Origin: Candidatus Micrarchaeota archaeon
GTDB lineage: Archaea > Micrarchaeota > Micrarchaeia > Anstonellales > Bilamarchaeaceae
Length of the DNA: 64,000 nt
Direction of reading: 5' to 3'
Assembly (NCBI GenBank): GCA_038046765.1
Contig: JBBSVN010000005.1
Coordinates: forward strand, 64,001-128,000
A model generated the notes under the pieces. It was not told where the DNA came from and made no database searches. It worked only from the letters and a program-made list of their open reading frames with translations. This document shows positions 18,742-61,150 of this stretch, in pieces. The position numbers and the translations under genes were made by a program. How positions within the stretch are numbered: the first letter of the stretch is position 1; each line of letters begins with the position of its first letter.

Positions 18742-18826
18742 CGACTGGCACTGCCATATGGATGTATTTGTGCAGTGCCCTACAGGTCTGTAATTAGAAA
18801 ATACACTGTTTTCTAAGCATGCCTGT
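18742..18826 (+). repeat. tRNA-upstream double-hairpin element, copy 1 (before tRNA-Gly)
   Basis: CGACT-GGCACTGC..GCAGTGCC-CTACAGGTCTGTAA-TTAGAAAA..TTTTCTAA-GCATGCCTGT; matches 27237-27327 and 61008-61150. Confidence 0.85.
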
Positions 18827-18847
18827 TGATAATAAGCTAATACAAAT

Positions 18848-18940
18848 GCGCCTGTAGTCTAGTGGTAATCGCAAGTTGTGATCACTAAAGGATCGTAGCC
18901 TTCCAAGCTACTGACCCGGGTTCGAATCCCGGCGGGCGCA
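18848..18940 (+). tRNA. tRNA-Gly(TCC) with a 22-nt D-loop intron (about position 20/21; 18867-18888)
   Basis: Acceptor GCGCCTG/CGGGCGC, anticodon arm GTAGC-CTTCCAA-GCTAC, T arm CCGGG-TTCGAAT-CCCGG; strict BHB with AGTG/CACT helix and GTA and AAA bulges. Confidence 0.95.
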
Positions 18941-19062
18941 AATTTTGATCACAAAATTTGTCGAACTTTAGAAGGCTTTACTGCCATTCTAATGGGCGCA
19001 AATTTATTCTAATTTTTCTAATCAAAAATCATTTTAAAAACTGTTGCTTAAAATATATTTTT

Positions 19063-20097
19063 ATGAAAAATTCGATACTTGAGGATCGAACTGCTTATCG
19101 CAAAAATGCCTCGAATTTACCTACAAATGGTTTTAAGTCACCCGCCCCTTTATTTAGTGCAATTCTTCCGGATGATAATAATCTAGCTGAAGCCAAAGCA
19201 TTTTTTCGAGGAAAATATTTAAGTGTTTCATCTGATGTAGTTAAATTCGATAAACCTTATGATGGTCGCTGCGTTCTCTGCCAGGATAGTTCTATGGTAC
19301 TTGTTGAACCAAATTTTACCGTAACTGGTGTTTTTGATGGGTTTGGGGACTCCGGAGAAGTACTTTCGAGATTTTTTATAGATGAATTATTTCGTGAATT
19401 TCATGCTAAGCGTTCTATTTCTTTTAAGGAAGAAGACTTTAAATCATCTATAAATTTAGCGATCGAATTTTCCTCTCTTAATGCACAGGGTTTTATTAAA
19501 AAAATTGAAGGAGGCACTACTGCAATAGTTGCTCTTATTCTAAATGATGGCACTTACTTTTTAGCTTGCATTGGTGATTCTGCAATTTATAAATTTAGTA
19601 AAACTGGATTGCAAAGATTATCGGATAATTCTATGGTCGGATGCATGAAAAACGAGTCTGGTGTACTTGGTTATTCTGTTTTACCTTATACTCAAATCGA
19701 TCTTAAGCAATACCTAGATAATCGGCATCTTGTTTTAGAATTTTTATCTTCAATTGGTTTAAGTGGCAGCAATCCTAAAATAAATTTTTTATCCGGACAC
19801 CTTGAAAAATCAGAAAAATTAATCCTTGTAACTGATGGTATAACAAAAAATTTATCCATTATTATTGGTCTTTTAGATTTGGTGAAAGATGCGAGCGGGG
19901 TATCGGATTTACAAGAGATTATAAAAACAAAAGCATCCGATCGTTTCATTGGTCGCGCGGTATTAAAAGCAGTAAGAGAAAGGATAGCATCTTCAAGAGA
20001 AACATCTCTTAATGATATCTTAAAATCAAGAACAGATGGCACGGTTCTAGTTCCACAAGATGATGATCGCACGGTCGTAGTTGTTAAAAAATTCTAA
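19063..20097 (+). CDS. PP2C/PPM-family phosphatase-like protein
   Basis: CQDS, GVFDGFG, GGTTA, IGDS, LVTDGI, DDDRT motifs; start moved to ATG 19063. Confidence 0.8.
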   Translation: MKNSILEDRTAYRKNASNLPTNGFKSPAPLFSAILPDDNNLAEAKAFFRGKYLSVSSDVVKFDKPYDGRCVLCQDSSMVLVEPNFTVTGVFDGFGDSGEVLSRFFIDELFREFHAKRSISFKEEDFKSSINLAIEFSSLNAQGFIKKIEGGTTAIVALILNDGTYFLACIGDSAIYKFSKTGLQRLSDNSMVGCMKNESGVLGYSVLPYTQIDLKQYLDNRHLVLEFLSSIGLSGSNPKINFLSGHLEKSEKLILVTDGITKNLSIIIGLLDLVKDASGVSDLQEIIKTKASDRFIGRAVLKAVRERIASSRETSLNDILKSRTDGTVLVPQDDDRTVVVVKKF

Positions 20098-20099
20098 TT

Positions 20100-20765
20100 T
20101 TAAAATACGCTAGCTAATCCTCTTAAAAATTCTTTAGGATCCTTCGCATTTACATACGCGCTAGCTAACAAGACTCCTCTGCTGCCCAGTGCTAATGCTT
20201 TTGCAACATCCTGCTTAGTACTTACTCCTGCGCCACAAAGTGGGATAATTTTATCATTAACTAGTTCTATCGTTCGTACGCTTTCCTTTACTACTTCTGG
20301 TTTAGCCGTACTTACGCTTATTCCGCTTCCTATTAATTCTGGTGGTTCGATCGCGATATAAGTTGGCAGAAATTCCGCAACCTTTTTCGTTTCTTTTAAA
20401 TCTGCTGTGCAAGCGATGCTTTCTAATGAATTAATGTGCAATCTTTCAATTGTATTCTTTACTGCTTCTAAAGGAAGTTTTTTCTCGGAATGATTAACTA
20501 ATGAACCTCTTACTTTTATTCGTTTTAATGCCTCTGGAGGTAGTGAACCTGTATGCGCTCCTGGTTGCATATAATCAGTATGCTGCGCAAATATGTCGCT
20601 AAAGCGCTCTGCTGATTCTTTTAAATGTATTATTGGAGGACAAACGATGATTCTAACTCCTGTTTCTTCTACTACTTCGCTTGCTACATCTACATAGTAT
20701 AGTGCTTTCTCTAAGCTTTTCTCGTATGTTTTAAGGTTAAGAACTATCATACTTTCACTCTTCAC
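20100..20765 (-). CDS. tpiA: Triosephosphate isomerase, archaeal type
   Basis: NLKTY, AQH, NHSEK, AIEPPELIGSG, CGAGV, GVLLASA. Confidence 0.96.
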   Translation of the reverse strand: MKSESMIVLNLKTYEKSLEKALYYVDVASEVVEETGVRIIVCPPIIHLKESAERFSDIFAQHTDYMQPGAHTGSLPPEALKRIKVRGSLVNHSEKKLPLEAVKNTIERLHINSLESIACTADLKETKKVAEFLPTYIAIEPPELIGSGISVSTAKPEVVKESVRTIELVNDKIIPLCGAGVSTKQDVAKALALGSRGVLLASAYVNAKDPKEFLRGLASVF

Positions 20766-20822
20766 AAGAAAGGAATAAATATGTGCTGATAATTATTACA
20801 AAAAAAGAAAAAAATATTTTAT

Positions 20823-21140
20823 CTACTTTGCAAATTTATTCAATTCAATTTGAGTTAAGTATTGCGCGGCTGGGAACAAGACTAACCACAATACGAATAA
20901 TAATACTTTACTCTGCGAACCTTTTGATACTTTTTCAACATCTTGGGCATATCTCCAGAGAACATAGAATCCTACTATTGGGAGAAGTCCAAGAATTAAC
21001 CAAACTATTGCGCTTGTTTTTCCTCCAGTTAATTCATTTAGTTCGGTTCTTGTTTGATAAAACCAATATAAGTAATATATTCCTAAAGTAAGTATACTAA
21101 ATATAATTACCTTTATCGGATCTCTTTTTTTAATTGCCAT
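20823..21140 (-). CDS. DUF4234-like small membrane protein
   Basis: LTLGIYYLYWFYQ...ELN pattern with 3 TM segments. Confidence 0.75.
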   Translation of the reverse strand: MAIKKRDPIKVIIFSILTLGIYYLYWFYQTRTELNELTGGKTSAIVWLILGLLPIVGFYVLWRYAQDVEKVSKGSQSKVLLFVLWLVLFPAAQYLTQIELNKFAK

Positions 21141-21252
21141 TATCTTTCACCTTATTATAATTAATAAATTGAATGTCAAAGTAAGGTTTAAATTTGTTAG
21201 TTTAGCTCTGTCTGCCTGTTTTTTAACTATTTTTATTTAATTAACCTATACT

Positions 21253-21443
21253 GCCAGGATGACAGAATCCGGTTATCGTGCTTGTCTCGAAACCAAACCT
21301 TTTACATTGGTTTTTCTAAGAAATTTATTCTTAGAATGCGAGTTAACAAGTTCCCTTGCGGGATTGTAGGTTCAAAAGTTTTCGGATTGTTTTTCAAAAC
21401 GCTAGACGCGTAACTGAAAACTGAACATATCCTGCTCCTGGCG
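21253..21443 (+). tRNA. tRNA-Ser(CGA) with two introns: 37/38 (21292-21344) and T-loop (about 21377-21429)
   Basis: Acceptor GCCAGGA/TCCTGGC+G, anticodon stem CTTGT/ACAAG, long variable arm, T stem GTAGG/CCTGC; central helices CTCG/CGAG and TTCA/TGAA. The 3' bulge of intron 2 is 5 nt, so that boundary is uncertain. Confidence 0.92.
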
Positions 21444-21498
21444 TATAATAATAAAAATTGAACATAGAATATAATATATAAAATATCAAATATAAAAT

Positions 21499-21652
21499 GG
21501 GCCTGTAGCTCAGTCTGGATCAGAGCGGCACCGTCCTAAGAGTTCTGTGTCATGTGTTTTACGTTTTGTTCGTTATTCGTTCAAGACGCTAAACTGAAAA
21601 CACAAAACTCGCATGTAGGTGTAGGCCATGAGTTCAAATCTCATCTGGCTCG
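21499..21652 (+). tRNA. tRNA-Arg(CCT) with a 78-nt intron at 37/38 (21539-21616)
   Basis: Acceptor GGGCCTG/CTGGCTC (one T-T mismatch), D stem GCTC/GAGC, anticodon stem GCACC/GGTGT, T arm ATGAG-TTCAAAT-CTCAT; spliced loop GTCCTAA. Confidence 0.85.
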
Positions 21653-21722
21653 TATATTTTTCTTTTTTCTTTTTTTAGTTCTAGCCACAGCTTTATAATC
21701 CTTATTTTCTTTCTTATTAAGC

Positions 21723-22283
21723 ATGACAAAGAAATTCGTTCTTGATACTTCGCTTTTTGTAAACCCTCACGCACGCGGACACTTTGGAAAAACTCCTGAC
21801 TTGGCTGTTAAAGGATTCTTGAAAGCTGCAAAGAAGAAGAATGCAGAATTTTACATGCCACCAAGTGTATTTAAGGAATTAAAAAATTTTCTTAAATCTA
21901 AAACTGCCGATGAATTAGAATTGTTTTTGAAGAATAAAGCACCTAATATTTATGCTACTTACTTGCCAGCTGCAGTACTTTATGATTTTATCGAAGATAT
22001 GCGAAATCGACTGAACAAAGGATTAAGATTAGCCGAAGACTATGCTCAAGATAATCACCCAGATAATGCTGCAAAACTTGGGAAATTAAGGGAAAAATAC
22101 AGAGAAGCAGTTCGTGCTGGCTTAGTTGATAGCAAGGAAGACTTTGAACTTATTCTCTTATCAAAAGAAATAGATGCTCTTTTAGTTTCTAGTGATGAAG
22201 GCGTAATAAAATTTGCAACTAATATTGGGTGCGAATGTTTGAATGCAAGCAAATTAAGCGCGATGTTAAAGAAGTTAAGATAA
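21723..22283 (+). CDS. HARP, protein-only RNase P (Aq_880 homolog; 'RNA ligase partner' PIN family)
   Basis: FVLDTSLF, FYMPPSVFKEL, RLNKGLRLAE, LREKYREAVRAGLVDSKEDFELILL, SSDEG. Confidence 0.92.
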   Translation: MTKKFVLDTSLFVNPHARGHFGKTPDLAVKGFLKAAKKKNAEFYMPPSVFKELKNFLKSKTADELELFLKNKAPNIYATYLPAAVLYDFIEDMRNRLNKGLRLAEDYAQDNHPDNAAKLGKLREKYREAVRAGLVDSKEDFELILLSKEIDALLVSSDEGVIKFATNIGCECLNASKLSAMLKKLR

Positions 22284-22304
22284 AATAAACTGTGATTCAA
22301 ACAT

Positions 22305-23063
22305 ATGTCTAGAAAAACCAAAATCGCACAAAGTTTTGACAAAATCAGCCGAACTTACGAAGATGTTCGGCCTACTTATCCTGATGTTGTTATCAAAAAG
22401 ATTCTCTCTTTTTCAAAGATCCCAAAAAATGGTAAAATTGTTGAAGTTGGCTGCGGACCAGGTATAGCTACAATTCCATTTGCAAAAAAAGGATACAATA
22501 TCTCTGCCATAGATCCTGGTAAAAATCTCCTTTCTATTGCTAAAGAAAAAACCCGTAAATTTTCAAATGTTTCTTATATTTTAAGTTCATTTGAAGATGC
22601 TAAACTTCCAATTAATACTTTCGATCTTTTAATTTCTGGTACTGCCTTTCATTGGGTTAATCAGAAAACAGGATATAAAAAAGCTGGCGAATTGCTAAAG
22701 AAAGGCGGAACAATCGCGCTTTTCTGGCTTGCTAATAACTATAAACGAACTGACTTTATTCCTGGTTTATCCGCAGTTTTTAAGAAATACTCTAAAAATA
22801 AAAAAATCAAGCAAAAACCCTATGAAAAAGAATTTAAACGCATAGCGCGGTCAGGTCTTTTCGGAAAAGTTCACCGGTTCATTTATAATCAAAGAATCAA
22901 ATACTCTAAGGAAGATTACATTAAACTTGTAAGTACTTTTGGCTGGATAAATGTACATCCTAAAAAACCAGAATTTCTTAAAGACCTTAGTAATTTACTT
23001 GGAAAGAGAAAGTATATTTTAGTTCCGTATTCTACTATTCTTTTTATTGCGAGAAGAAAATAA
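22305..23063 (+). CDS. Class I SAM-dependent methyltransferase
   Basis: YEDVRPTYP, EVGCGPG, AFHWV. Confidence 0.9.
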   Translation: MSRKTKIAQSFDKISRTYEDVRPTYPDVVIKKILSFSKIPKNGKIVEVGCGPGIATIPFAKKGYNISAIDPGKNLLSIAKEKTRKFSNVSYILSSFEDAKLPINTFDLLISGTAFHWVNQKTGYKKAGELLKKGGTIALFWLANNYKRTDFIPGLSAVFKKYSKNKKIKQKPYEKEFKRIARSGLFGKVHRFIYNQRIKYSKEDYIKLVSTFGWINVHPKKPEFLKDLSNLLGKRKYILVPYSTILFIARRK

Positions 23064-23064
23064 A

Positions 23065-24147
23065 TTAATCCTCAATCCCCTTCCCGCTTAAAGCCTCCTT
23101 TATTTTATGGGTGCTTTTCTTGTAGATTTTTCTAAACTTAATTTTTGTTTTTCCATTTTCTGCTTTGGTTCGGCTCACTTCATCAATTTTTATTTCCTTG
23201 CTCATGTGCCTATGGATCCAGTCCCATATTTTTAAGTCTTTAATGATGATTTCATAATCGTCGTAAATTTGTTTGTCGTTTTCGACTTCCGTTATTGCCT
23301 TTGTCAATTTCTCATAAAAAGCTATCCCAAGTTCTTTTGCAAATTTTTCTTTATTTAGTTCAAACTCCCGAATAAATATCGCACTTCTAAGAACTCTTTG
23401 AACATAAAACCCAAGCGGCATATCAAATAAGCTATGCGATGACCCTGCAATATCTTCTATATCTGCAAAAGGATTGACATATTTTACGGCTTCCTTACGA
23501 TCTTCGCTCTTAAATATTATCCCCTCCTTTCTCTGTTTCATTATTGATAGTGCGATTTCTCTTATTTTCTTTAAATCAGAAATAGCAAACTTGCCAAAAC
23601 TAGGTGCCTCTTCTATTTTATATTTTTTTAGTAACGATTGCCTTTCTTCCGGAGAAATATAATTGCCGTTTCCAGTATCAACATCAAAAACAAATATCTT
23701 AACATCAAATCCCTTAGTCGGTCTAGTATATGGGGTGTTTCCAACCATTTCCGCGCATAATACATAATCTGGAAAATCAGAAAAGAATTTAGGAGTTATT
23801 AATTCGCGCGCTTTCTCACTTGCAAAGTAATCAAGGAATCCGCCACGAGAAAATGCGTAAACATTACCATTAATCTTTGCGATTCGAAGATTATATCCGT
23901 CTATCTTCTCTTCAATGTAAAAATAAGACGCAGTTATGTTCCTTTCTAATCCCTTCTTTAGTGTAAATATCCTTTTAATGTGGGGAAAACCAAAAATAAT
24001 TCGCTCGTTAATAACAATTGTCCCACGTGGAATTCCTCTAAAACCTTCCCGAAAACCAGAATAAATTAGTTCTTCTTTTCGATCAATTAGTTTGCCTCTT
24101 TTACGGGCTTCGGATAGTAATTGATCTGTCATTTCTAGTTTTGGCAT
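23065..24147 (-). CDS. rnl: ATP-dependent RNA ligase, archaeal Rnl3 (Pab1020/MthRnl) family
   Basis: GFPHIKRI, motif I EEKIDGYNLR, SRGG, CAEMVG, FVFD, KEGIIFK, VKY, C-terminal dimerisation domain. Confidence 0.92.
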   Translation of the reverse strand: MPKLEMTDQLLSEARKRGKLIDRKEELIYSGFREGFRGIPRGTIVINERIIFGFPHIKRIFTLKKGLERNITASYFYIEEKIDGYNLRIAKINGNVYAFSRGGFLDYFASEKARELITPKFFSDFPDYVLCAEMVGNTPYTRPTKGFDVKIFVFDVDTGNGNYISPEERQSLLKKYKIEEAPSFGKFAISDLKKIREIALSIMKQRKEGIIFKSEDRKEAVKYVNPFADIEDIAGSSHSLFDMPLGFYVQRVLRSAIFIREFELNKEKFAKELGIAFYEKLTKAITEVENDKQIYDDYEIIIKDLKIWDWIHRHMSKEIKIDEVSRTKAENGKTKIKFRKIYKKSTHKIKEALSGKGIED

Positions 24148-24191
24148 AAAATAAACAAGTAAATGAATATTATAAATATACTCTAAGTACG

Positions 24192-25973
24192 CTAAGCCAC
24201 CTTAGCTTCCTTATTCTCATTAAGCATTTCCTTTACAATTATTGCATAAGCTGGTCTTGATAATAAGAATCCTAAAACAGCTCCTAGAATTGTCGACGTA
24301 GCAAAACCGATTAATTCAGTTATTCCAGAGAATAATAATGGCATCATCGCAACAATCGCAACAACTATATTTGTTTTAATTATCTCAAAAGCTGAAGCTA
24401 TTTTAGATTCAATCGATCCTCCATCTTTTTTCCTTATTTCATCAGTAATTACAATCTGCGCGTCAACACCAACACCAATAGCAGCTATAATTCCAGCTAC
24501 TCCTGCTAAATCGATGTTAAATGGCGAACCTCCTAAAATAGATAATAAAATTATAAGTTCGCTAATACTTACTCCAACTATTGGTAAAATCATTTTAAGG
24601 CTTCTATACCTAAGCGAAATAAAAATTCCGATTGCGATTAATGAAGCTGCGATACCAAGTATACTTATTTGTAAGAATTCTGCACCTAGTGTTGCAGGTA
24701 TTGTTGTTTTACTTCCAAGAGATATTTGAACTGGTAATGAACCTCCTTTTAATATACTTTCAATAAAACGTGCCTGCTCAAGAGCCAGATTTGCCTTATT
24801 TGTATTTGCACTTAACTGTGTTGTTGGGACGCTTCCGCTGATACCTACTGAATTTCCTGATGGTGGTAATCCCTTTGTTAGTTCTTCTCCTAAAACTGGC
24901 GATGTTAACAACCCTACGGCGGACCATTTTTCTATAGATATGCTTTTATCAATTGGATTATAATTAAACGTCGGTGTTATGTTTTCCTCTGCAATTTCTT
25001 TAACAATAAATCCTTTTTGTTTTAGGTAATCCTTTACTTGTAAGGACGCTTCTGAAGAAATGTATGCTTTTGTTGCGTTGGTTTTTTGAGTTATATTTGT
25101 TTTATTTTGTAAAATTGTTTCTTCAAAATAAAGTTCTATGTTGTCACTATCTGTTTTAAGTGTATTCTTAGCTGCATTTATTGATTCGTAATCATTTAAC
25201 TGGCTATTTGTACCCGTTGAAGAAATTGCATTTGCTGCCGCCTCTGCTGCGCTTGTAAGTTTGTCTCTGTTTATAACAATTATTGCATCTGTTGGTCTAT
25301 CTAAAAACATGTATACTGGGAATTTTGGTTTATTTTTAGCAGTACTGGCAAATTTCTTTGCGCCTTCGTTGGTCATTGTAAAACCAACTTCCCAATCTCT
25401 GCCGGGGGAACTTCCTGGTACTTTTATCCTGATTGTCTGTGTGTATATATCTTCTGAAGTTAAAGCTGTTTTACCATCTATTACTGCAAGAAAAACTCCT
25501 TGTTGTGAAATCGCTTTTTCTATTGCACTTATTTGTTCATCGTTTGTATTTGCCAGTTCTACGTTTATTTCTGTATCTCCTATTGATTTGACTTTTACTT
25601 CGCTTAATCCAAGAACCGATGCTCTGCTTTTTATCGTGTCTATCATTTTATTCATTGTTTCTGCATCAACTTTCTTTTCCAGTATAATTGGTATTTTGGT
25701 ACCACCGCTAAAATCAATTCCAAAATGAAGTCCGTTAAATGCGAGGTTAAACATTGCCAGTAAAACAATCGCAGCCATTCCGAACATTCGTAGTTTAGTG
25801 TCCTTGTAAATTATTGCCATTCCTCCAAAAAGTATGAGTGCCGCAGCAAGTGTCATTCCTGCGAATTTTGAATAACCTGCGATTAAGAATATAAATATTA
25901 AAAATAATGCCCCTAAGAAAGCCATGCTTCGGTCTAGTTTTAACTGGAATTTTGGTCCTTGTTGTTCGTTCAT
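24192..25973 (-). CDS. secD: Protein translocase subunit SecD
   Basis: GIDFSGGT, LKGGSLP, IPATLG, GVGVDAQIVITDE. Confidence 0.92.
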   Translation of the reverse strand: MNEQQGPKFQLKLDRSMAFLGALFLIFIFLIAGYSKFAGMTLAAALILFGGMAIIYKDTKLRMFGMAAIVLLAMFNLAFNGLHFGIDFSGGTKIPIILEKKVDAETMNKMIDTIKSRASVLGLSEVKVKSIGDTEINVELANTNDEQISAIEKAISQQGVFLAVIDGKTALTSEDIYTQTIRIKVPGSSPGRDWEVGFTMTNEGAKKFASTAKNKPKFPVYMFLDRPTDAIIVINRDKLTSAAEAAANAISSTGTNSQLNDYESINAAKNTLKTDSDNIELYFEETILQNKTNITQKTNATKAYISSEASLQVKDYLKQKGFIVKEIAEENITPTFNYNPIDKSISIEKWSAVGLLTSPVLGEELTKGLPPSGNSVGISGSVPTTQLSANTNKANLALEQARFIESILKGGSLPVQISLGSKTTIPATLGAEFLQISILGIAASLIAIGIFISLRYRSLKMILPIVGVSISELIILLSILGGSPFNIDLAGVAGIIAAIGVGVDAQIVITDEIRKKDGGSIESKIASAFEIIKTNIVVAIVAMMPLLFSGITELIGFATSTILGAVLGFLLSRPAYAIIVKEMLNENKEAKVA

Positions 25974-27061: not shown

Positions 27062-27236
27062 AAAATCAAATACTTCTCTAAGTAGATATTTTTGTTGTCA
27101 AATAATATAATAGCTATTATTTTTAATTGTTAGGTCTAAATATATTATACTGGCAGGTAGCTAGTGGCTCTTAGCTAGTAGCTTTATAATTAAATTGATT
27201 TGTTAACCTTATAATAATGGGTTTATAAAAAAATAA

Positions 27237-27327
27237 CGACTGACGCGACCGTTATTTTATACTAAGTGTCGCGTCCTACAAGTCTGTAATAAGAAGAGCC
27301 TCTTTTTTCTTAGTAAAGAGTATGTAG
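27237..27327 (+). repeat. tRNA-upstream double-hairpin element, copy 2 (before tRNA-Cys)
   Basis: CGACT-GACGCGAC..GTCGCGTC-CTACAAGTCTGTAA-TAAGAA..TTCTTA..TGTAG; TTTATAAA box at 27222-27229. Confidence 0.8.
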
Positions 27328-27342
27328 TAAGTTTATACTAAC

Positions 27343-27544
27343 GCCGGGTTGGCAGATCGGCTATGCCGCCGCCTGCAAACTCCTTTAATTGCTTAGGGTC
27401 AAACCTAGCTTCTAAAGTTGATGTTTTAAAGGCACTTATGTGATACTTTGTATTACCGTAAGATTCCGCTTTTATGAGGTAAGCGCAAGTTTACCAATGA
27501 TATTTAGAAAGCGGCTTAGACAGGTTCAACTCCTGTACCCGGCT
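27343..27544 (+). tRNA. tRNA-Cys(GCA) with a 131-nt intron at 37/38 (27379-27509)
   Basis: Acceptor GCCGGGT/ACCCGGC with T discriminator, anticodon stem GCCGC/GCGGC, T arm ACAGG-TTCAACT-CCTGT; relaxed BHB. Confidence 0.92.
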
Positions 27545-27690
27545 TAATTTATTTTTATAATTGATCGTTTAGCGTTTTCAAGTTTCGAGTTTTGTGTTTA
27601 GTATTTTGTTGATTAATCTAGATACCGGGTAGAATTAAAAGCTTTTGCACACTAATTTTAATTATTAACAACTACTTAAGAGCTGATTTT

Positions 27691-44465: not shown

Positions 44466-44620
44466 TGGCGGGCTCAGAGGGAAATTCCGAGTTTTGTGTT
44501 TTCAGTTTAGCGTCTTGAACGAATAACGAACAAAACGTAAAACACATGACACAGAACTCTTTTGAACCCTCGGCGGACGGATTAAGAGTCCGTTACTCTA
44601 CCAAGCTGAGCTATGAGCCC
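44466..44620 (-). tRNA. tRNA-Lys(CTT), CCA encoded, with a 78-nt T-loop (59/60) intron (44483-44560)
   Basis: Acceptor GGGCTCA/TGAGCCC-G-CCA, anticodon arm ACGGA-CTCTTAA-TCCGT, T stem GAGGG/CCCTC; relaxed BHB. Confidence 0.95.
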
Positions 44621-44643
44621 TTTCTAATTCATTGCTAATGTAT

Positions 44644-44694
44644 CGACACTTAGTATATTCATTTACAGGACGCAGTCTTCGACTGCGTCGGTAG
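44644..44694 (-). repeat. Divergent partial copy of the tRNA-upstream element (before tRNA-Lys)
   Basis: TTTATAAA-7 nt-CTACC-GACGCAGTC-GAA-GACTGCGTC-CTGTAA, then TATACTAAGTGTCG, a 14-mer identical to 27258-27271. Confidence 0.6.
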
Positions 44695-44777
44695 TTTATT
44701 CTTTATAAAAACTAAGGCTACAATTAGCATGTTATTAGCATATTCTATCTGTAAACAAGTGTTTTTATTTGCTTGTA

Positions 44778-52705: not shown

Positions 52706-52753
52706 TAAAATTGCTTAGCTTTTTATTATCTTTTTATCAAATATTTTTATAAT

Positions 52754-53029: not shown

Positions 53030-53218
53030 ATGCAGCTTATCATAAATAACGACAAAAAACAGCTTGAGTTTACTGGTGAAATCCAAAAACTTTTAAAGCA
53101 GGAAAAAATTCGAAGGGAAGAAGTAGTAATAAAAGTGAATGGAAAACTTGCTCCTGAAACTACGATCGTTGGAGATAAAGATACTGTTGAAATCATTAAG
53201 GTCGTATTCGGTGGCTAA
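53030..53218 (+). CDS. ThiS/MoaD-family sulfur carrier (TtuB/SAMP-like)
   Basis: 62 aa, VNG, C-terminal GG; directly upstream of a TtuA/Ncs6 gene. Confidence 0.9.
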   Translation: MQLIINNDKKQLEFTGEIQKLLKQEKIRREEVVIKVNGKLAPETTIVGDKDTVEIIKVVFGG

Positions 53219-53251
53219 TGGCTAAATGCCAAGGGCTAAAAGCTGATTAAT

Positions 53252-54172
53252 ATGCAATGTTCTAAATGCAAATTAGATGCAATAATATACTTACCATACT
53301 GCAAAACCCATTTTTGTGCAACTCATTTCAATAAAATGTTCGAAAAAAGATTTCGAGCTACGATTCGAACATCTAATCTAATTAAAAAAGGAGAGCGAAT
53401 TGCTGTTGCGTTATCTGGAGGTAAGGACAGCGTAGTTTTAATGCACTTGCTTGCTAAATTCCAGAAACTTCTACCTTTTGAATTAGTTGCGGTTACGATT
53501 GATGAAGGGATTGCTAATTATCGGAGTAAAACTTTAGATGTAGCCGAACGAGAAGCAAAAAAATTAGGGATTGAACATAAAGTATTCTCATTCAAAAAAG
53601 AAACTGACCTCACTCTTGATGAAATAATGGTAAAGAAAAAAGAGTCCATTCCATGCAGTTACTGCGGAGTAATCCGAAGATACATGATTAATAAAGCGGC
53701 TAGGGAAGTTCAAGCAGACAAAGTCGCAGTAGGGCATAACCTGGATGATATTGCTCAAACTGTTTTGATGAACGTAATGAGAAACGAACCAATACGCTTA
53801 GCCAGATTAGCTGATCCATTAATTGATGATGAAAAATTAATTCCAAGAATTCGTCCGCTTATGCGTTCACCCGAAAAAGAAATTGCTATATATTCGATCG
53901 TTAACGGAATTGAAATTCATTTTGATGAGTGTCCCTATGCCAGGCATGCTTTTAGGGCGCACATTCGAGATCAATTAAATGAAACCGAAGAAAAGTATCC
54001 TGGGTCAAAGTTTAAAATTCTAAATAGTTTACTTTCACTACATCCAATTCTACAAAAAGGATTGGAAAATCGAACTTTTGAAATGAAACACTGCAAAATT
54101 TGTAAGGAACCTTCTGGACAGGATATTTGCATGTTTTGTAGTATGCTGGAGGATATTAGGAATACGGAATAA
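53252..54172 (+). CDS. tRNA 2-thiolation enzyme, TtuA/Ncs6 family
   Basis: PP-loop SGGKDS, CSYCGV, GHNLDD, CPY, terminal zinc fingers. Confidence 0.92.
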   Translation: MQCSKCKLDAIIYLPYCKTHFCATHFNKMFEKRFRATIRTSNLIKKGERIAVALSGGKDSVVLMHLLAKFQKLLPFELVAVTIDEGIANYRSKTLDVAEREAKKLGIEHKVFSFKKETDLTLDEIMVKKKESIPCSYCGVIRRYMINKAAREVQADKVAVGHNLDDIAQTVLMNVMRNEPIRLARLADPLIDDEKLIPRIRPLMRSPEKEIAIYSIVNGIEIHFDECPYARHAFRAHIRDQLNETEEKYPGSKFKILNSLLSLHPILQKGLENRTFEMKHCKICKEPSGQDICMFCSMLEDIRNTE

Positions 54173-54180
54173 CAGAGTAA

Positions 54181-54591
54181 TTATTTTCTAAGTAAATTAA
54201 GAAGGTCAGTAGTTGTTACAATTTTAACTATATTTTGCTTTTCTTTTAAAGCAGCGTCATAAGTCCATAAACCAGCGCCCAAATACATTGCGAGTGCTAA
54301 AAATGGCCAATCATCAGGATCAGGCGTAAATTTCAAGACTTCTTCTTTGTATTTCATATAATCCTCTTCAGGCACAATTGTGAGTTTAGAAAAAATAATT
54401 GAAAGAATTGTATGAAATTCTTCATCTTTGTACTGCGATTTTTTCATTATTTCATTCTTATGTTTCTCAATTTCATCTCTTACGTACTCTGGAGCATAGC
54501 ATACAAATGCACGATTAAAAAGAACTTCTTGAGTTATCGATCGTTTTAGTGCTGCAGAAATGATTACATTTGTGTCTACTACAAGGAGCAT
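54181..54591 (-). CDS. vapC: PIN-domain toxin (VapC-like)
   Basis: VVDTNVIISA, DPDDWPFLALA, WTYD. Confidence 0.88.
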   Translation of the reverse strand: MLLVVDTNVIISAALKRSITQEVLFNRAFVCYAPEYVRDEIEKHKNEIMKKSQYKDEEFHTILSIIFSKLTIVPEEDYMKYKEEVLKFTPDPDDWPFLALAMYLGAGLWTYDAALKEKQNIVKIVTTTDLLNLLRK

Positions 54592-54593
54592 CC

Positions 54594-54824
54594 TTAAGCC
54601 TCGTGTCTTTTTCTTACGGCTTCTTTAACTTTTTTTGAAATTTCTTCGATATCTCGATCAGTCGCCTTGCTTTTTGAAGTCAGATCTTTAAGTAATTCCA
54701 ATTTATTGATTTGCTCTGCAAATGCTTCTCTAGCTACTTCTGACCAGTTGATTATCTGAAATTCATCCATCTTTGTTTTCATTTCTATTGGTACCGACAC
54801 AGTTATGTTAACCATATTCATCAC
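54594..54824 (-). CDS. Ribbon-helix-helix antitoxin
   Basis: NITVSVP...INWSEVAREA; directly upstream of the PIN gene. Confidence 0.82.
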   Translation of the reverse strand: MMNMVNITVSVPIEMKTKMDEFQIINWSEVAREAFAEQINKLELLKDLTSKSKATDRDIEEISKKVKEAVRKRHEA

Positions 54825-54878
54825 ACAGTATTTATGTGTAAAGAATATTTATAATGTTTTGCCTAGAATAAGTAAATT

Positions 54879-55088
54879 TGGACTCGCAGGGATTTTCAAG
54901 CACCGCCCTTTTCAACACCTCGGTTCTACAAGTATCAAAAAGGGCTGTTGTCACCCCAAAACAAGCTATTCCAAGAATCGTTTCTTAGTAAAACCTGCAA
55001 TGGTTGACCTTCTAAAAAGAAAAGATGGTCTTTGAACCCTGAGTCTCTGCAATGCGAATGCAGCGCCTTACCGTTTGGCCACGAGCCC
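54879..55088 (-). tRNA. tRNA-Ala(CGC) with a 138-nt T-loop (59/60) intron (54893-55030)
   Basis: Acceptor GGGCTCG/CGAGTCC+A with G3-U70, anticodon arm CTGCA-TTCGCAT-TGCAG, T stem CAGGG/CCCTG; central helix TTCA/TGAA. Confidence 0.93.
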
Positions 55089-55145
55089 TATTGTATAAGT
55101 ACTTTGTTGCCAAATCTTTTTAATTCACAGTCTCTAAGTCTAATC

Positions 55146-55670
55146 ATGCAATTTCATTACATTCACGGTACTAATTCGCTTGTTTTCAAAGAAATTTGGC
55201 AAATTTATGAAGAATCTTTTCCGCCTGATGAACGAAGAACTTTGGCACAGCAGGAGGAACTTTTTAATCGGAAAAACTATGTTTTACTTGCAGTCTACAA
55301 AGAAAACAAGCTCGTTGGTTTCATTTCAAACTGGGTCTTAGATAGCTTTTGTTTCGTTGAACATGCTGCAATAAAAAAATCGCACCAGGGCAAAGGATTT
55401 GGAACTAAGAGCTTGGCGCTTTACTTAAAGAAAGTAAATAAAACCTTTATTTTGGAAGTAGAGTTGCCCACCAGTCAAATTGCAAGAAAGCGAATTGATT
55501 TCTACAAGAAGCTTGGGTTTAAGTTAAACGATTTCGATTACGTTCAGCCTTCTTATTCTAAATCTAAAAAGAGCGTTCACCTAATGATTATGAGTTATCC
55601 TAAGGAATTAAAAGGAGATGAATTTGAAGAAATAAAAAAAGAGATTTATAAGAAGATTTATGGGATTTAA
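55146..55670 (+). CDS. GNAT-family N-acetyltransferase
   Basis: YEESFPPDERR, QGKGFG, RIDFYKKLGF; start ATG 55146 because the longer call overlaps tRNA-Ala. Confidence 0.88.
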   Translation: MQFHYIHGTNSLVFKEIWQIYEESFPPDERRTLAQQEELFNRKNYVLLAVYKENKLVGFISNWVLDSFCFVEHAAIKKSHQGKGFGTKSLALYLKKVNKTFILEVELPTSQIARKRIDFYKKLGFKLNDFDYVQPSYSKSKKSVHLMIMSYPKELKGDEFEEIKKEIYKKIYGI

Positions 55671-55697
55671 TAATGCAATGTTAAATGAGGTAAAACT

Positions 55698-56203
55698 ATG
55701 GAATATGCCAAAAAGGATATACTGGATTTAACTTTATAAGAATCTTTATTATTGCACTATCCTTATTTCTAATTGGCTTTGGAACCGTAATGGCTTATTT
55801 TGCTATTCTCACATTAATTGATGTTAATGCACCTCAATTTTTCTCGATTATACTTTTTTCAATTTCTGGATTTTGTATCTGGTGTGGATCTCAATTTTTA
55901 GGGGGAATAAGTAGAATAATAATAAATGGTAGCGAATTTGAAATAGTCGATCTCATCGGAAGAAAACAGAAAATCTATCTTATATCAAAAGCTAAGCTTG
56001 AGTTATTATCTTCTGGTGGTGATTCTAATTATGTTTATCTCTCTCTACAAATATTTCATTCTAAAGGAGTACTTAAATCAATTTCGATCAAGAAGTTCGA
56101 TAACTTTATGAAATTGTTAAAAGATTTAGAACGCATTTCGGGAAAAGAAGTTGAAGGGATTAAATTACTAGATGCAAAAACTGATGAGGATTATCTTTTG
56201 TGA
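55698..56203 (+). CDS. Hypothetical membrane protein, probably frameshifted near the 5' end
   Basis: GAGGT SD plus ATG 55698; one extra A in the A-run near 55710 would join it to the 55790-56203 frame and add a TM helix. Confidence 0.5.
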
Positions 56204-56272
56204 TTACGGAAATTTTATATATTTCCGCTAATTTCCGCTATTTATCCTCTGTAAAATACAATTGCGGAAAAG

Positions 56273-56902
56273 TTAATCACCATGTCTTCTCCCTTCAAAC
56301 CAATCAAACATATCCTGCCTGAGTTTACTTTTTCTTCCATCCGGGTGAGTAAAAACAACACCTTCGACAAAGTGCTTGAATTCTTTGTTTTCCCTTCCGT
56401 TTATCCTATAAGAATAAAGTGGCATAAGTTCCTTGAACCAGTTTGAAATAGTTTCAAAATCTTTTTTGTACTTGCCACTGCTCCAGGATTTATACTGTAA
56501 ATGGTCTTTGCAGTAGGTTTCAAACGGCAACCATAAATGCCCTTTAATGTTGTATGGATTTCCATTTATCTTCTCTCCAATAAGTTCTCCAAAATGCTGG
56601 CCATCTGCAAAGTTTTCCATGTAACCTTTATCATAACTTTCAATTACACCTTTAACTAAATGCATCTGAGTTTTATTAAAAAATGGTACAGGGTTTATTC
56701 TATTCCATATCGAAGTTACTATTCCGTTTTCCATTACAACACTTACATTTGTTCCATGAATTTTTTCTATTGCCATTACGCTTGGATCATTAAATACCCA
56801 TTCATAACCGGAAGTAACTTCGGGGGTAACTAAATATTCTTCCTTTTCATTCATTTTTCGAACGAACGGGGATTCTAGTTTAGGGAAATCGCGTATTTGC
56901 AT
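56273..56902 (-). CDS. Compact ATP-dependent RNA ligase-like nucleotidyltransferase (RLIG1/DUF5565-like)
   Basis: Motif I EKIHGTN, motif III GELIGEKINGNPY, motif IV EGVVF, motif V SKLR. Confidence 0.78.
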   Translation of the reverse strand: MQIRDFPKLESPFVRKMNEKEEYLVTPEVTSGYEWVFNDPSVMAIEKIHGTNVSVVMENGIVTSIWNRINPVPFFNKTQMHLVKGVIESYDKGYMENFADGQHFGELIGEKINGNPYNIKGHLWLPFETYCKDHLQYKSWSSGKYKKDFETISNWFKELMPLYSYRINGRENKEFKHFVEGVVFTHPDGRKSKLRQDMFDWFEGRRHGD

Positions 56903-56924
56903 AAAGTCAGCTCGTTACTTTGTA

Positions 56925-57980
56925 TTAATAAATATAAGATTTTCCAAGCATTTTATTAAACCCAAATTTTTTCCTATTCCTCCAGTTCCCTTTATGGTAA
57001 ACGTAACTCGCGATTAATGGCAATACGCTTCCTGCTTCAGCATAAACCATCTGCTCGTAAGTAGTATCTACCTTACCCCAGGAACTGGCTTCTTTTAAAG
57101 TAGAACTAGAACACGCTCCATCTCGAACATCAGCTACCGTAATCTGTACTGCATATTTATGCATAGGTACATCTTTTCCTAATATTTCAGCACAAATAAC
57201 GGTATCTTGGGCAAAGTTCTTTGGTACCCCTCCACCAATCATGAATAATCCAGAATTTTTAGTTGCCATCTTTACTTTAGTTAACTCGTGAAAATCTCTA
57301 ACTGAATCAATTGAAACATACTTTTCTTTTTTCTCCATTCTTCTAACTTGATGAGACACCAGGCCAAATCCAGCGCTTGAATCAGAAAATGCAGGACAAA
57401 ATATCGGGACATTATGTTCGTACGCAGCTTGAACAAGTGAGTTTTTCTTTTTTGCGTGCTTAGTGCACCATTTTCCCATCTCGTAAATAAATTCACGGGA
57501 TGAATATGGCCTTGGTTCAAGCGTATCAGCTATTTCACCAATCGTTTTATCACAGTGTTGCAACTCTTCCTCGTCAATATATGTATCATAAATTCGATCG
57601 ATATAATTATCTCTTAAATGGCGATCATCGATAGCAGGTATTCCCTTATAATGGTTAAAACCCAGTGCTTCAAAAAAATCCATATCGACTATTGAAGCTC
57701 CTGTAGACACAATTGCATCGATCATATTATTTTTTACTAAATCATGGTAAATTTGCATGCAACCTCCAGCACTGGTACTTCCAGCTAAAGTTAGCATAAT
57801 CGCGCAGTCATCTTCCTTTACCATCATGTCTAAAATGTCTGCAGCACGGGCAGTATCTCGAGAAGTAAAAGACATATCTCTGTAACTGTTAATTATCTTT
57901 GTAGAATCAAATGAAGTAATATCTACATGTTTTACTTTTTCCTTTAATAAATCCTGTTTTTTACTGGTGTTATTTTCCAT
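56925..57980 (-). CDS. Deoxyhypusine synthase family protein
   Basis: IVSTGA, IDRIYD, PIFCPAFSDSS, GGGVPKN, EASSWGK. Confidence 0.9.
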   Translation of the reverse strand: MENNTSKKQDLLKEKVKHVDITSFDSTKIINSYRDMSFTSRDTARAADILDMMVKEDDCAIMLTLAGSTSAGGCMQIYHDLVKNNMIDAIVSTGASIVDMDFFEALGFNHYKGIPAIDDRHLRDNYIDRIYDTYIDEEELQHCDKTIGEIADTLEPRPYSSREFIYEMGKWCTKHAKKKNSLVQAAYEHNVPIFCPAFSDSSAGFGLVSHQVRRMEKKEKYVSIDSVRDFHELTKVKMATKNSGLFMIGGGVPKNFAQDTVICAEILGKDVPMHKYAVQITVADVRDGACSSSTLKEASSWGKVDTTYEQMVYAEAGSVLPLIASYVYHKGNWRNRKKFGFNKMLGKSYIY

Positions 57981-58000
57981 AGCTAAGATATTTGTAAGAA

Positions 58001-58064
58001 AAAAATAAAAATCCAGTAGCTGCGGCTACTAGCTTTTTATTTCAACAAAAATAAAAATCCAGTA
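58001..58064. repeat. Hairpin with 18-bp direct repeat (AAAAGCTAG..CGCA..CTGGATTTTT family)
   Basis: AAAAATAAAAATCCAGTA at 58001-58018 and 58047-58064, with an inverted copy between. Confidence 0.75.
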
Positions 58065-58068
58065 CAAA

Positions 58069-58869
58069 TTATTGTGCATCCTTAACTCTAACTTCTAAGT
58101 TTTCATTTCCAGTTCGTTCTACTTCGAAAATAGTTCTATTATACCCAGCGAATACAAATGTAGCTCGATGACTGTAAGTATTTAAACCATATCTCCAACC
58201 TAAATGATCGCTTATAGCTCTAGATAGGGGTCGTACTTCTATTTTGTCGTTTGTAGTAAATGTTTGCATACCCATATCTATTGCACTTATTCCATCTTTC
58301 TTATCTATTTTTGCACTTTCTTCTGCTGTTAGAATCCTCGGAAGGCAATCTCCATTTGGATCAATTATCTTTCCTACCTGTCTGTCCCTTGTTTTTAATC
58401 CCCAATACCTAGCTACGTTAGTGGCAACTATAACTTTTTTAGGGACTATTATATCTCGTTCGCCTTCCTTTGCAAATTCTTTAAATTCACTTATAAGCAG
58501 TACGGTATTTTTATGCGCTCTTCCAGTAAATTCGCTTTGTGCAAGATGTTTATCTAAATCCACGATCGTTAATTCTGTTTCAGGGTCGCTAACGCTGAGC
58601 CTTCCGCGCTTGAAATAACTACCTAATCCCGGGCATATTACAATTGTATTTAACCATATTGGATGTCTCCATTTCAATCCTCCGGGTTGCGTTATCAACC
58701 TAAAAAAAGGTGTATTTCGTATAATTAAATCCCTGTGAAAATCTTTATTCTCGGGTAAACCCCCTTTATCCTGCATCATTTGATGCGCTTGCAACCATGG
58801 CATCTGAACTCCAGTTGAAACGATCTCTTTTCTTTTTGTTCCGCTTAATTCTAGTTTTATCAAAGTCAT
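58069..58869 (-). CDS. Hypothetical protein
   Basis: ORF; probable start ATG 58869 after GGAGA. Confidence 0.6.
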   Translation of the reverse strand: MTLIKLELSGTKRKEIVSTGVQMPWLQAHQMMQDKGGLPENKDFHRDLIIRNTPFFRLITQPGGLKWRHPIWLNTIVICPGLGSYFKRGRLSVSDPETELTIVDLDKHLAQSEFTGRAHKNTVLLISEFKEFAKEGERDIIVPKKVIVATNVARYWGLKTRDRQVGKIIDPNGDCLPRILTAEESAKIDKKDGISAIDMGMQTFTTNDKIEVRPLSRAISDHLGWRYGLNTYSHRATFVFAGYNRTIFEVERTGNENLEVRVKDAQ

Positions 58870-58955
58870 ACTATCTCCAATTAACATTTGCAAAAACTAG
58901 AATATTATTTTAGTCCAATCGTACGCTGGTTCATTTATAATTAGAACTTATATCG

Positions 58956-59669
58956 CTAAATTTTCTTAAGTACTTTAAAAAATAGTGGAATCAGTTTTGA
59001 TTCTGCTTTCCTTAAATGCTCTGATAATGTTGGTGGAGAAATGCCTATCTGAATCGCCAACTCCTCAAGGCTAACTTTTTTTGGAATATCATAATAACCC
59101 TGGTTGCAAGCTAGTTCAAAAACCTCTCTTTGACGTTCACTTAATAAATCTCTCGCAGAGTTTAAATCAAAAAATCCACTCTTACTAAAAACATCCAAAT
59201 TGACTTTATTCGCTTCCAATATTTTCTTTCTTTTTAATTTTATGTTCCAATCCTGCTCTTCCCAGTTTTTTACTAAGTTCTTTAATTGATTATATGAACT
59301 AGCAAGTAATAGTTCCGTGTCTGCACCTTCTTTTGTTACGGGACTTTCAAGTAATGTTACTCCGCTTTCGTGCAATATTTTCAAAGTCATTGCCTTGTAG
59401 CTCGAAGTTATCTTAAGCAGCGCAGTTTTATTTGTTTTAGTTACTACTTCAAGTTTTTTTACTAATTTATGTCCTCTTAAAAAGTCTATATCTTTGTCTA
59501 TTCTTAAGGATTCTATTTTTACTAAGCTGGTTATGTTGTCGTTCTGTATTCCGAGCGTCCTTATGGTATTTCCGTGTGCGTCCTTACTTTTTTCCGTAAG
59601 ATCAACAAGCCAGCACGGGTGGGAGATATTCACTTCAAAAAATATCAATTCCTTTTTACTTGCTGGCAT
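58956..59669 (-). CDS. Transcription regulator with a Bat-like C-terminal HTH (HTH_10)
   Basis: LSERQREVFELACNQGYYDIPKKVSLEELA...LSEHLRKAESKL; N-terminal HPCW. Confidence 0.9.
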   Translation of the reverse strand: MPASKKELIFFEVNISHPCWLVDLTEKSKDAHGNTIRTLGIQNDNITSLVKIESLRIDKDIDFLRGHKLVKKLEVVTKTNKTALLKITSSYKAMTLKILHESGVTLLESPVTKEGADTELLLASSYNQLKNLVKNWEEQDWNIKLKRKKILEANKVNLDVFSKSGFFDLNSARDLLSERQREVFELACNQGYYDIPKKVSLEELAIQIGISPPTLSEHLRKAESKLIPLFFKVLKKI

Positions 59670-59747
59670 CTCTTCAACTCGTTTTTATTATGTCTGCTTA
59701 ATTGTTTCGTAAAAATAAATCTGTCAAGAAATAAAAAGAAATGCTTA

Positions 59748-60809
59748 TTACTTTCTAAATCTTTCTCTTAACCAGTCAGGCTGATAATATTTCGAAGGAT
59801 TACTCATACGATCTAATTGTTCATAAGCTGATTTAGATTTTCCTTCTGGGTCTTTTTCTGCTATACTAATCAATGCTAGTTTGAACTTGTCAATACTAAA
59901 TTCTTTTATCGCGCGTGTAGCATAATAAAAAGATTCATCTTTTTTAAATCCTAAGGACTTTGCCTGATCTATTATTTGTTGCGCATTCGGGTATATTAAA
60001 AATTCGCAGAAAAATTTAAGTTCTTCTAAATCATATAAAATCGGATATTTTTTCGAATCATTAAATGGATATGCGGGGTGAGTACTTCTCGAATATTTCA
60101 TTGCTTTTTTAACTGTTGTTTCATTGTACGTTCTAAGCAGCTCTATCGCTTCCCTGTTTTTTATTGTTTGAAAATCTATTACATTCGGAATTAAACCTAT
60201 TTCTGCTGCTTTTCTGGTTGTGTCTTCACCGTATAATTTGACTGCCCGTGTACAATCAATAATATCTACCTTATATTTATCTGATATGTCTTTTGCAATT
60301 TTGACATTTTCTTCTCCTAAACTAGAAAGTAATTCTGCTTTTTCTAATACTTTTAATACTTCACTTATTACATAACCTGAATGGCCAGGATAGTATGCAA
60401 TTGTCTGATTTGCGCGTTTAAACTGTTTTCGATATCTTTCGCTAGAATCATTACTAATTATCTTCCTTATCTGTGAATCAAAATCTAAATGCTTTTTTGC
60501 TACATCTATAATAAAATTAGTAATTGGTGCATTGGTTGTTGTACCTACCCTAGCATTTCTCAATTTTTCTAGCTGTGCATTTGCATAATCTAAAATCGCC
60601 GTTTCACTAGTAAATCTACTTGGTTCTTTTGTATCTCCATCTTTTAGATAAATCACTTCACTTTGTGTTTGTTCCATTGTTTGTGTTTCTCTAGCTGGAA
60701 TTGGTCGATATTTATCATAAGCGTATATACTTGCAGTTATCGCTAGTGCTGTAATTATCGATACTGTTGTTAGGTTTACTTTTTCGTTAAGTTTTCTTAG
60801 TAATTTCAT
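59748..60809 (-). CDS. Hypothetical protein with an N-terminal membrane anchor
   Basis: 353-aa ORF; AGGAG SD. Confidence 0.65.
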   Translation of the reverse strand: MKLLRKLNEKVNLTTVSIITALAITASIYAYDKYRPIPARETQTMEQTQSEVIYLKDGDTKEPSRFTSETAILDYANAQLEKLRNARVGTTTNAPITNFIIDVAKKHLDFDSQIRKIISNDSSERYRKQFKRANQTIAYYPGHSGYVISEVLKVLEKAELLSSLGEENVKIAKDISDKYKVDIIDCTRAVKLYGEDTTRKAAEIGLIPNVIDFQTIKNREAIELLRTYNETTVKKAMKYSRSTHPAYPFNDSKKYPILYDLEELKFFCEFLIYPNAQQIIDQAKSLGFKKDESFYYATRAIKEFSIDKFKLALISIAEKDPEGKSKSAYEQLDRMSNPSKYYQPDWLRERFRK

Positions 60810-61007
60810 TTTAACTCCTGTTTTTGGGTAATTCGGATAAATGTTATAATAAGTATATACTTGTAAGTATTTTAAATGCTATCGAAAATAAGAAATTTAC
60901 TATGTTTAGCTAATTCTAAAGCATTAAAAACTATTCTAATAACTAATTATTCTACTACTTTTGCCTTAAGTTTATTCTGGGTAAAATGTCCGTTATTTAT
61001 AAGTTAA

Positions 61008-61150
61008 CGACTGGCAATGCCGTTAGAATTATTTTAATGCACTTCAAAAACGACGATTCGTTTTTGAGGATTTGAGAAAGACGATTCATTCTCAAAGTTG
61101 CCCTACAGGTATGTAATTAGAAAAATCACTTTTTTCTAAGTATGCTTGTA
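61008..61150 (+). repeat. tRNA-upstream double-hairpin element, copy 3 (before tRNA-Leu), carrying a 56-nt nested insertion
   Basis: CGACT-GGCAATGC..GCA[61042-61097]TTGCC-CTACAGGTATGTAATTAGAAAA..TTTTCTAAG; the 3' part is about 62/74 identical to the Gly copy up to the tRNA start. Confidence 0.85.

Follow-up and report, generated by a model that had tools for sequence, protein, structure and literature searches.

What kind of element stands directly upstream of several unrelated tRNA genes is the question raised by a 64,000-nt stretch of a Candidatus Micrarchaeota genome (G000:C5:64001-128000; hereafter the window). The host genome, G000, is 1.5 Mb in size and 90 % complete; other G numbers denote related genomes and L numbers denote loci. 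A first-pass annotation had described a double hairpin before tRNA-Gly, tRNA-Cys and tRNA-Leu, with a divergent copy before tRNA-Lys, and read it either as an undescribed leader RNA of tRNAs or as a mobile repeat resembling the repetitive extragenic palindromes (REPs) that work with REP-associated tyrosine transposases (RAYTs). The repeat is real and previously undescribed in the literature searched. With a little more confidence than doubt, we regard it as the interior (~110 nt) of a lineage of miniature inverted-repeat transposable elements (MITEs) of the archaeal ISH3 family, persisting in 5′ leaders in an end-less form.

The elements before tRNA-Gly and tRNA-Cys lie where they had been placed (Table 1). 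The Gly copy has CGACT at 18742, an 8-bp stem (18747-18754/18772-18779) closing a 17-nt loop, the conserved boxes and a tail that reaches the tRNA start, while the Cys copy has CGACT at 27237 and a stem at 27242-27249/27268-27275 with an 18-nt loop. Measured from the end points first proposed, the spacing to the tRNA is 21 (Gly), 15 (Cys) and 20 nt (Leu), within the 15-21 nt originally given, but the conserved unit continues beyond those end points to the tRNA itself: it runs from ~7 nt before the stem through to the gene start, and the distance from stem to gene start is fixed at 63-66 nt in three genera. The Leu element is a real copy, scored with a model trained without it, but its 3′ arm is not contiguous as had been drawn; the 5′ arm (61013-61020) faces an arm split into 61039-61041 and 61098-61102 by a nested double-hairpin insert. 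Similar inserts of 48-60 nt are nested at differing positions in at least seven further G000 copies, and the interior of a MITE in G027 holds a hairpin resembling them. Before tRNA-Lys there is a similar stem (9 bp, 44669-44689) with a 3-nt loop and a tail ~15 nt short, but its 18.2 bits compare with 17.2 for the best background match, and a degenerate copy of the repeat is possible there but unproven. The window genes for tRNA-Arg (21499) and tRNA-Ala (55088, minus strand) have no hairpin, so that two of the six tRNA genes are clearly without the repeat. A run from a different study yields a contig that is identical over positions 18591-18979.

A search of G000 with a structure pattern gave 15 matches, all with loops of 17-18 nt, against 1, 1 and 0 in three shuffled genomes. 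The plain CGACT..CTACA pattern gave five matches against 0.9 expected, of which two are true copies, and neither motif is invariant across the family as the three window copies had suggested. Covariation of stem 1 holds in the larger sample: in an alignment of 27 copies drawn from four genomes, pairing holds in 97 % of 213 stem cells (kinship uncorrected), changes on both sides are seen at 7/8 pairs, and slid controls reach 24-48 %. Among 59 stems with 25 arm variants, a count that excludes seven copies with inserts or bad anchors and stems of fewer than five pairs, Watson-Crick pairs number 404 and mismatches nine, and G-U pairs do not occur; in one subfamily tandem G-A/A-G pairs stand in for two pairs. 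Family-wide covariation is confined to stem 1. The second half of the proposed double hairpin is not conserved family-wide, being supported in only part of the G000 tRNA copies and absent in G001 and G035 (p 0.83). Other helices, between the 5′ flank and the box after the stem or in the A-rich/T-rich stem, were set aside for lack of family-wide compensatory change, and pairing of head and tail is marginal in G000 (p 0.044, 0.066) and absent in G001/G035. No Rfam covariance model matched the element in the window or in scans of 18 and 6 loci, which returned only tRNAs and sub-threshold chance hits, in keeping with the initial remark that no known family was recognised in it.

The origin of the repeat is suggested by four copies in G000 that we term subfamily III. 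Three are MITEs of 143-195 bp with CAGT-type inverted ends and exact 5-bp target duplications; the fourth is decayed at its right end and its duplication is preserved at 4/5 bases by eye. A profile of 11 end-less copies finds all four (E 1e-11, 4e-11, 1e-5 and 1e-4), and the MITE interiors and the end-less copies align collinearly to the last base, the end-less copies stopping at the column of the MITE's last base. In G001 and G035 the end-less copies finish in a conserved AG, 62-64 nt after the stem, in this same terminal column. Testing 66 copies for CAGT-type ends with an exact 5-bp duplication gave three positives, all in subfamily III (four of the copies were mis-anchored and four had weak A/T-rich hits). 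No terminal inverted repeats with target duplication were found in the Gly, Cys, Leu or other tRNA-linked copies, which are relatives of the MITE and not MITEs themselves. The expectation that the element would match no known insertion sequence (IS) end therefore stands for the tRNA copies and fails for the three or four family members that match ISH3 ends.

ISH3 elements are characterised by CRGT ends, 4-5-bp repeats, a length of 1225-1500 bp and a Y-2-R-3-E-3-R motif (PMC2266710), and ISHsal1 is stated to produce 5-bp duplications in a second source, from which we also take the definition of a MITE (PMC7002104). ISH3-like transposases (NF033541) were found in 3/61 genomes of the family and 15/401 of the phylum, all under the curated cut-off; inverted ends with exact 5-bp repeats were present at 6 of the 16 loci examined. 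The G001 transposase (L175) carries the Y-2-R-3-E-3-R motif, matches PF01609 (E 1e-11), lies in a 1370-bp element with a 5-bp repeat and scores 158 bits against the NF033541 cut-off of 225. Compared with the ends of intact IS elements, MITE ends are similar (p ≤0.002) in their left part in 4/4 cases and in their right part in 2/4. A 146-bp MITE in G025 has the right and left ends of ISH3-like elements around the same interior as the repeat, and a further G025 copy, before 5S rRNA, keeps the left end only and is an intermediate. Searches around the termini of autonomous ISH3-like elements did not find the repeat module (0/3 and 0/17 loci), and a blind scan of G000 for inverted ends with duplication gave four hits against 2-4 in shuffles, which is not significant alone. 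Runs of 7-base repeats precede some copies and follow many tRNAs (27150-27185 and 27575-27600 in the window), and similar runs fill the interiors of MITEs in G139 and G033.

Our first model identified 28 copies in G000 at E ≤0.01, among 33 matches listed. By reading and by eye, 14 were assigned to positions before tRNAs (one is the upstream of two copies in tandem, and one has an internal deletion), five abut start codons, four are subfamily III, three lie 30-50 nt before an open reading frame (ORF) and two face gene ends. Three of the start-codon copies stand at genes that we take from their N-termini to be ThrRS, TyrRS and SRP54; the other two stand at a PIN-type ORF and at an ORF following the reverse transcriptase gene of a diversity-generating retroelement (DGR). 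One further copy at a tRNA, which holds an insert, scores below the E line, and a few relics consist of the tail alone. The tRNA genes of G000 are intron-rich and for this reason most were missed by ARAGORN and Rfam; of ~36 located by script and by eye, an incomplete list, ~14 carry the repeat and ~22 have no full copy, compared with 5/~1,300 ORFs of ≥120 amino acids. The proposed enrichment beside tRNAs is therefore strong, but half of the copies lie elsewhere and the repeat is not tRNA-specific, which leaves a dedicated tRNA leader RNA unsupported. Nor is the tail a native tRNA leader, a candidate rejected because its motif is present in 14/14 tRNAs with the element and in 4/19 other tRNAs.

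The wider model matches at least 8/40 genomes of the family, with at least 36 copies in G001 and at least eight in G035, counts that are lower bounds with 82 candidates scored per genome; the first model had no match in 24 genomes of other families. For 24 of 26 ORF-linked copies in other genomes (five with extrapolated starts) the site has a tblastn match in G000, and only 1/24 is occupied there. Of the tRNA sites, judged by eye, three are shared (Ala, Leu(GAG) and one other); Pro, Glu and 5S are not. Because sites differ in this way between relatives, the repeat moves. Of the two original proposals it was thus that of a mobile repeat, multi-copy, tRNA-enriched, at lineage-specific sites and outside any Rfam family, that gained ground. 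Scans of metagenome contigs gave 0 and 2 matches and scans of viral contigs 1 and 0, all by chance, and low-depth reads of the same organism from other studies contained no strain without the element. Two copies are in tandem at C9:614-870 of G000. A 31-44-bp direct repeat of the element's own tail precedes two G000 copies (C7:117150-117300 and C15:37611-37770); such a long upstream repeat occurs in only 2/62 copies, and long target duplications were rejected on this count.

Within the order, ISH3-type ends land in a fixed orientation, ~20 bp ahead of TATA boxes. In the flanks of left ends a TATA word starts 17-23 nt away in 46/66 cases, compared with 0-7 in seven shifted windows and 1/14 at right ends, and in the base profile TATA peaks at +21 to +27, followed by a further A/T maximum at +40. 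The 66 distinct flanks, each of at least 70 bases, come from loci L214-L243 and L265-L303 in 15 genomes of the order, with 39 further regions fetched of ~97 end-motif matches; 37 of the 66 are from G077 and G100, and promoter targeting rests on these 66 ends. The end motif has 48 matches in G077 and 16 in G100, the mark of a recent burst. Guidance by TBP or TFB would account for such insertion; a structure prediction of transposase with TFB and TBP, made without alignments and with the chains taken from two hosts, scored 0.00 and is uninformative. G001 has a single TFB (L306:907-1797), ~17 amino acids shorter in its first cyclin repeat than that of G124, which could be either a deletion or an assembly error. 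The four MITEs of G000 fit the TATA rule poorly (0/3 by a strict test, whereas the decayed one fits by eye). In the open-access literature searched we found no TATA-directed insertion in archaea and no description of this repeat.

We propose that the end-less copies descend from the MITE and would have lost its far end, and that a second route then multiplied them, joining their 3′ end to gene starts. Such a route is needed because descent and capture alike leave the end-less copies without a multiplier, and ISH3 transposition alone cannot have placed them since the TATA rule is unmet and the G001 burst is end-less. It might be short-homology recombination or conversion between loci: the junction preference for TG and ATGG described below and the presence of similar copies at tRNAs with similar first bases (by eye) suggest the former. 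The copies would be transcribed within 5′ leaders. A ribosome-binding motif occurs in 12/18 ORF-linked and 0/9 RNA-linked copies of G001/G035 (p 0.001; five copies without anchor, one ORF misclassed), and this confinement to ORF-linked copies means that the tail is probably transcribed. Persistence may reflect low cost: at tRNAs the leader would be trimmed by RNase P RNA or HARP, and ahead of a protein gene a copy would survive once mutation turns its tail into a ribosome-binding site. There is perhaps also mild selection to fold away from the tRNA. On this view stem 1, with its covariation, could be a cis-signal for the element's own copying or a hairpin stabilising the leader, and not a tRNA-specific device.

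A number of observations weigh against this proposal. No ISH3 transposase was found in the 90 % of G000 that is covered, and the burst of copies in G001 has no ends at all. The end-less copies do not obey the 20-bp-before-TATA rule. Only one foreign MITE, that of G025, is linked to the family by the model (E 0.011); two MITEs in G028 and a partial one in G003 are similar by alignment only, with no model match. End-less tails resemble IS ends weakly (p 0.09, for left ends, and 0.026) and the MITE ends of G000 itself little better (p 0.02, weak support for descent), and upstream of the end-less copies there is no trace of the far MITE end (p 0.48, 0.95). The MITE-borne interiors do not form one clade (approximately unbiased test p 0.006, on 58 rows and 86 columns with rough support), and the interiors present in ISH3-type MITEs of the order are many and unrelated, 0/28 loci matching the model; judged from these comparisons, such non-monophyletic and varied interiors would be just as compatible with the capture of a module that already existed. 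In the one RNA run none of the listed pieces falls on the element, which is uninformative. On balance descent from the MITE is favoured over capture.

Capture is the core of the alternative in which mobility belongs primarily to the end-less module, moved by a single-strand (HUH-like) or site-specific mechanism with one precise end and taken up as cargo by ISH3 ends once or more. Several features fit this account: the 3′ junction is precise and the 5′ side ragged, with no duplication; TG follows in 6/12 copies not at genes (p 0.01); 11/15 ORF-linked copies are followed by an ATGG start, compared with 26 % in G000; the MITE interiors are varied as described; and the strictly Watson-Crick pairing of stem 1 is as expected of a DNA fold. 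The enzymes that it calls for were however not found. No Y1/RAYT transposase was found in G000, G001 or G035 (75-90 % complete), and no Y2/IS91, TnpB or IS110 enzyme in the genomes with expansions; Y1 is present in 13/40 relatives, and no copy lies nearby at the 10 such loci examined. It also leaves unexplained the coincidence of the gene start with the final column of the MITE, and we consider it unlikely. The same searches speak against the REP/RAYT mechanism put forward initially, the sole mobility signature being of ISH3 DDE type (inverted ends and 5-bp duplications). The GTAG noted beside the palindrome on the opposite strand is the majority base at all four positions at the hairpin foot in the 14 type I copies of G000, but it is not family-wide, being in the majority neither in 30 G001/G035 copies nor in the MITEs.

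A bolder extension of MITE descent is that a promoter-seeking ISH3 MITE was domesticated more than once in Micrarchaeota into an end-less, structured leader or promoter module of tRNA, 5S rRNA and translation genes, and is passing from gene start to gene start by an additional, as yet undescribed mechanism, which recognises the hairpin and attaches the 3′ end to the first gene bases. We offer this only tentatively and hold it to be rather improbable.

It is quite doubtful that the repeat works as a portable promoter, with the box at 27-38 nt from the gene start serving as TATA and transcription beginning a few bases ahead of the tRNA or ATG. The fixed spacing from stem to gene agrees with such a role, as does the consensus box of G001/G035, which reads as TATA with an initiator-like step 30 nt on, although most single copies deviate. 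A canonical box is present in 4/9 RNA-linked and 2/18 ORF-linked copies, a contrast that is not significant (p 0.14). Under the TATA profile of G000 itself, built from 191/599 ORF starts, the box scores like random DNA, below 0 in 14/14 copies against a canonical median of 8.2, and the box word is not enriched at -30 of G000 ORFs. The ribosome-binding site within the tail implies a start further upstream, and there is only one TBP gene. The first-pass annotation had argued that, for Cys and Leu, the upstream TATA boxes would regain roughly normal spacing were the element deleted; TATA-like words 16-23 nt before the stem occur in 7/21 copies and in up to 6/21 control windows, giving no pattern, and an upstream TATA at fixed offset was rejected.

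That the repeat would function as a structured RNA, either a leader or a ribozyme, in the maturation or regulation of tRNAs and translation genes is very unlikely: strong covariation of stem 1, the G-A/A-G replacement (a strand-specific fold), targets including the presumed ThrRS, TyrRS and SRP54 genes, and a more stable fold of the downstream 60 nt in 11 tRNA-linked than in nine other copies (-12.5 against -8.1 kcal/mol, p 0.003, which kinship overstates) speak for it, but its sites are not conserved between genera, 32/40 family genomes have no match with 82 candidates scored per genome, the many tRNA genes without a full copy and the copies facing gene ends do not fit, the junction shifts by 0-5 nt where self-cleavage would be precise, and the element has no Rfam family, no second hairpin in G001/G035 and no G-U pairs.

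Table 1 Copies of the repeat, nested inserts and associated genes (window positions unless a G000 contig is named)
Feature	Position	Strand	Remarks
End-less repeat copy before tRNA-Gly	18740..18847	+	96 bits, training copy
tRNA-Gly(TCC)	18848..18940	+	D-arm intron
HARP-type protein-only RNase P (TIGR03875)	21723..22283	+	
End-less repeat copy before tRNA-Cys	27235..27342	+	107 bits, training copy
tRNA-Cys(GCA)	27343..27544	+	long anticodon-loop intron
tRNA-Lys(CTT)	44469..44620	-	T-loop intron
Doubtful degenerate copy before tRNA-Lys	44621..44700	-	18.2 bits, E 0.8
End-less repeat copy before tRNA-Leu	61006..61170	+	63 bits, E 2e-9
Double-hairpin insert within 3′ arm of Leu stem 1	61042..61097	+	56 nt
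tRNA-Leu(TAA)	61171..61327	+	two introns, read by eye
G000 copy with nested insert	C3:129455		
G000 copy with nested insert	C6:16539		
G000 copy with nested insert	C9:793		
G000 copy with nested insert	C5:45194		
G000 copy with nested insert	C4:93668		
G000 copy with nested insert	C2:9596		
G000 copy with nested insert	C5:35581		

A number of neighbouring features were identified alongside the repeat. The HARP gene, whose family we take to be protein-only RNase P that could trim long leaders, adjoins a tRNA and lies near a TIGR01209 RNA ligase gene (window 21723-24147), and G000 also has a divergent RNase P RNA, a weak match at C5:35937-36199. Of the proteins most similar to this HARP, the best 25 carry a Micrarchaeota label with few exceptions. 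A near-identical intron of ~70 nt is common to tRNA-Arg (21499-21652) and tRNA-Lys (44469-44620) at different positions, which points to intron transposition between tRNA genes. Two DGR-like loci (L050 and L051; G000:C4:10924-14358 and 69463-72885) have template and variable repeats; at each, a break at the same GA repeat divides the reverse transcriptase gene between two frames, which hints at slippage control or common decay. Their link to the hairpin repeat is treated as incidental: one copy follows a DGR reverse transcriptase gene, and by eye, with no model search, the second reverse transcriptase locus has none. Between the gyrase genes a 310-aa protein (window 11386-12318, plus strand) combines an N-terminal helix-turn-helix with a C-terminal sigma-70 region 4 domain, and Gyrase A (4780-8718, minus strand; 1312 aa) has an apparent intein of ~450 aa near its N-terminus.

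A supposed new tRNA RNA motif is in this way replaced by a traceable history, that of a miniature transposon interior standing before about one third of the tRNA genes of G000, a reduced genome. End-less copies, their covarying stem strictly Watson-Crick, lie by the dozen exactly at gene starts with no known enzyme to place them, which suggests either that they are copied by an unrecognised route or that transposon DNA has been recruited to serve as gene leaders. Insertion ~20 bp before TATA boxes amounts to a safe-landing rule of a kind known from bacterial Mutator-like elements and from yeast retroelements, of which Ty3 inserts at tRNA genes.

Among known systems, GTAG-family REPs and bacterial interspersed mosaic elements (BIMEs) work with RAYTs, the genes of which are usually flanked by their repeats. 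Our repeat resembles them as a multi-copy, intergenic, GC-rich and strand-oriented hairpin that makes no duplication; it differs in its 17-18-nt A/T-rich loop and 65-nt tail, in a foot that is not conserved in relatives, in the absence of any RAYT found for it and in that some copies are DDE-type MITEs. With the ISH3 family its subfamily III shares CRGT-type ends, 5-bp duplications and a 1.3-1.5-kb partner transposase with the Y-2-R-3-E-3-R motif, these copies being non-coding derivatives of 143-195 bp with homologous ends. Putative mobile promoters, Correia and ERIC elements (PMC3575422) likewise place related upstream modules before unrelated genes and are sometimes IS-associated, whereas promoter activity of our repeat is only putative and its box misfits the TATA profile of G000. 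Mutator-like elements of the TnGBS, ISLre2 and ISKra4 groups insert upstream of sigma-A promoters (PMC3942029), and the TATA rule resembles the targeting of TnGBS and ISLre2. This likeness applies to the ISH3-type ends and not to the end-less copies at tRNA genes; it joins a different transposase family to a different target, the archaeal TATA promoter.

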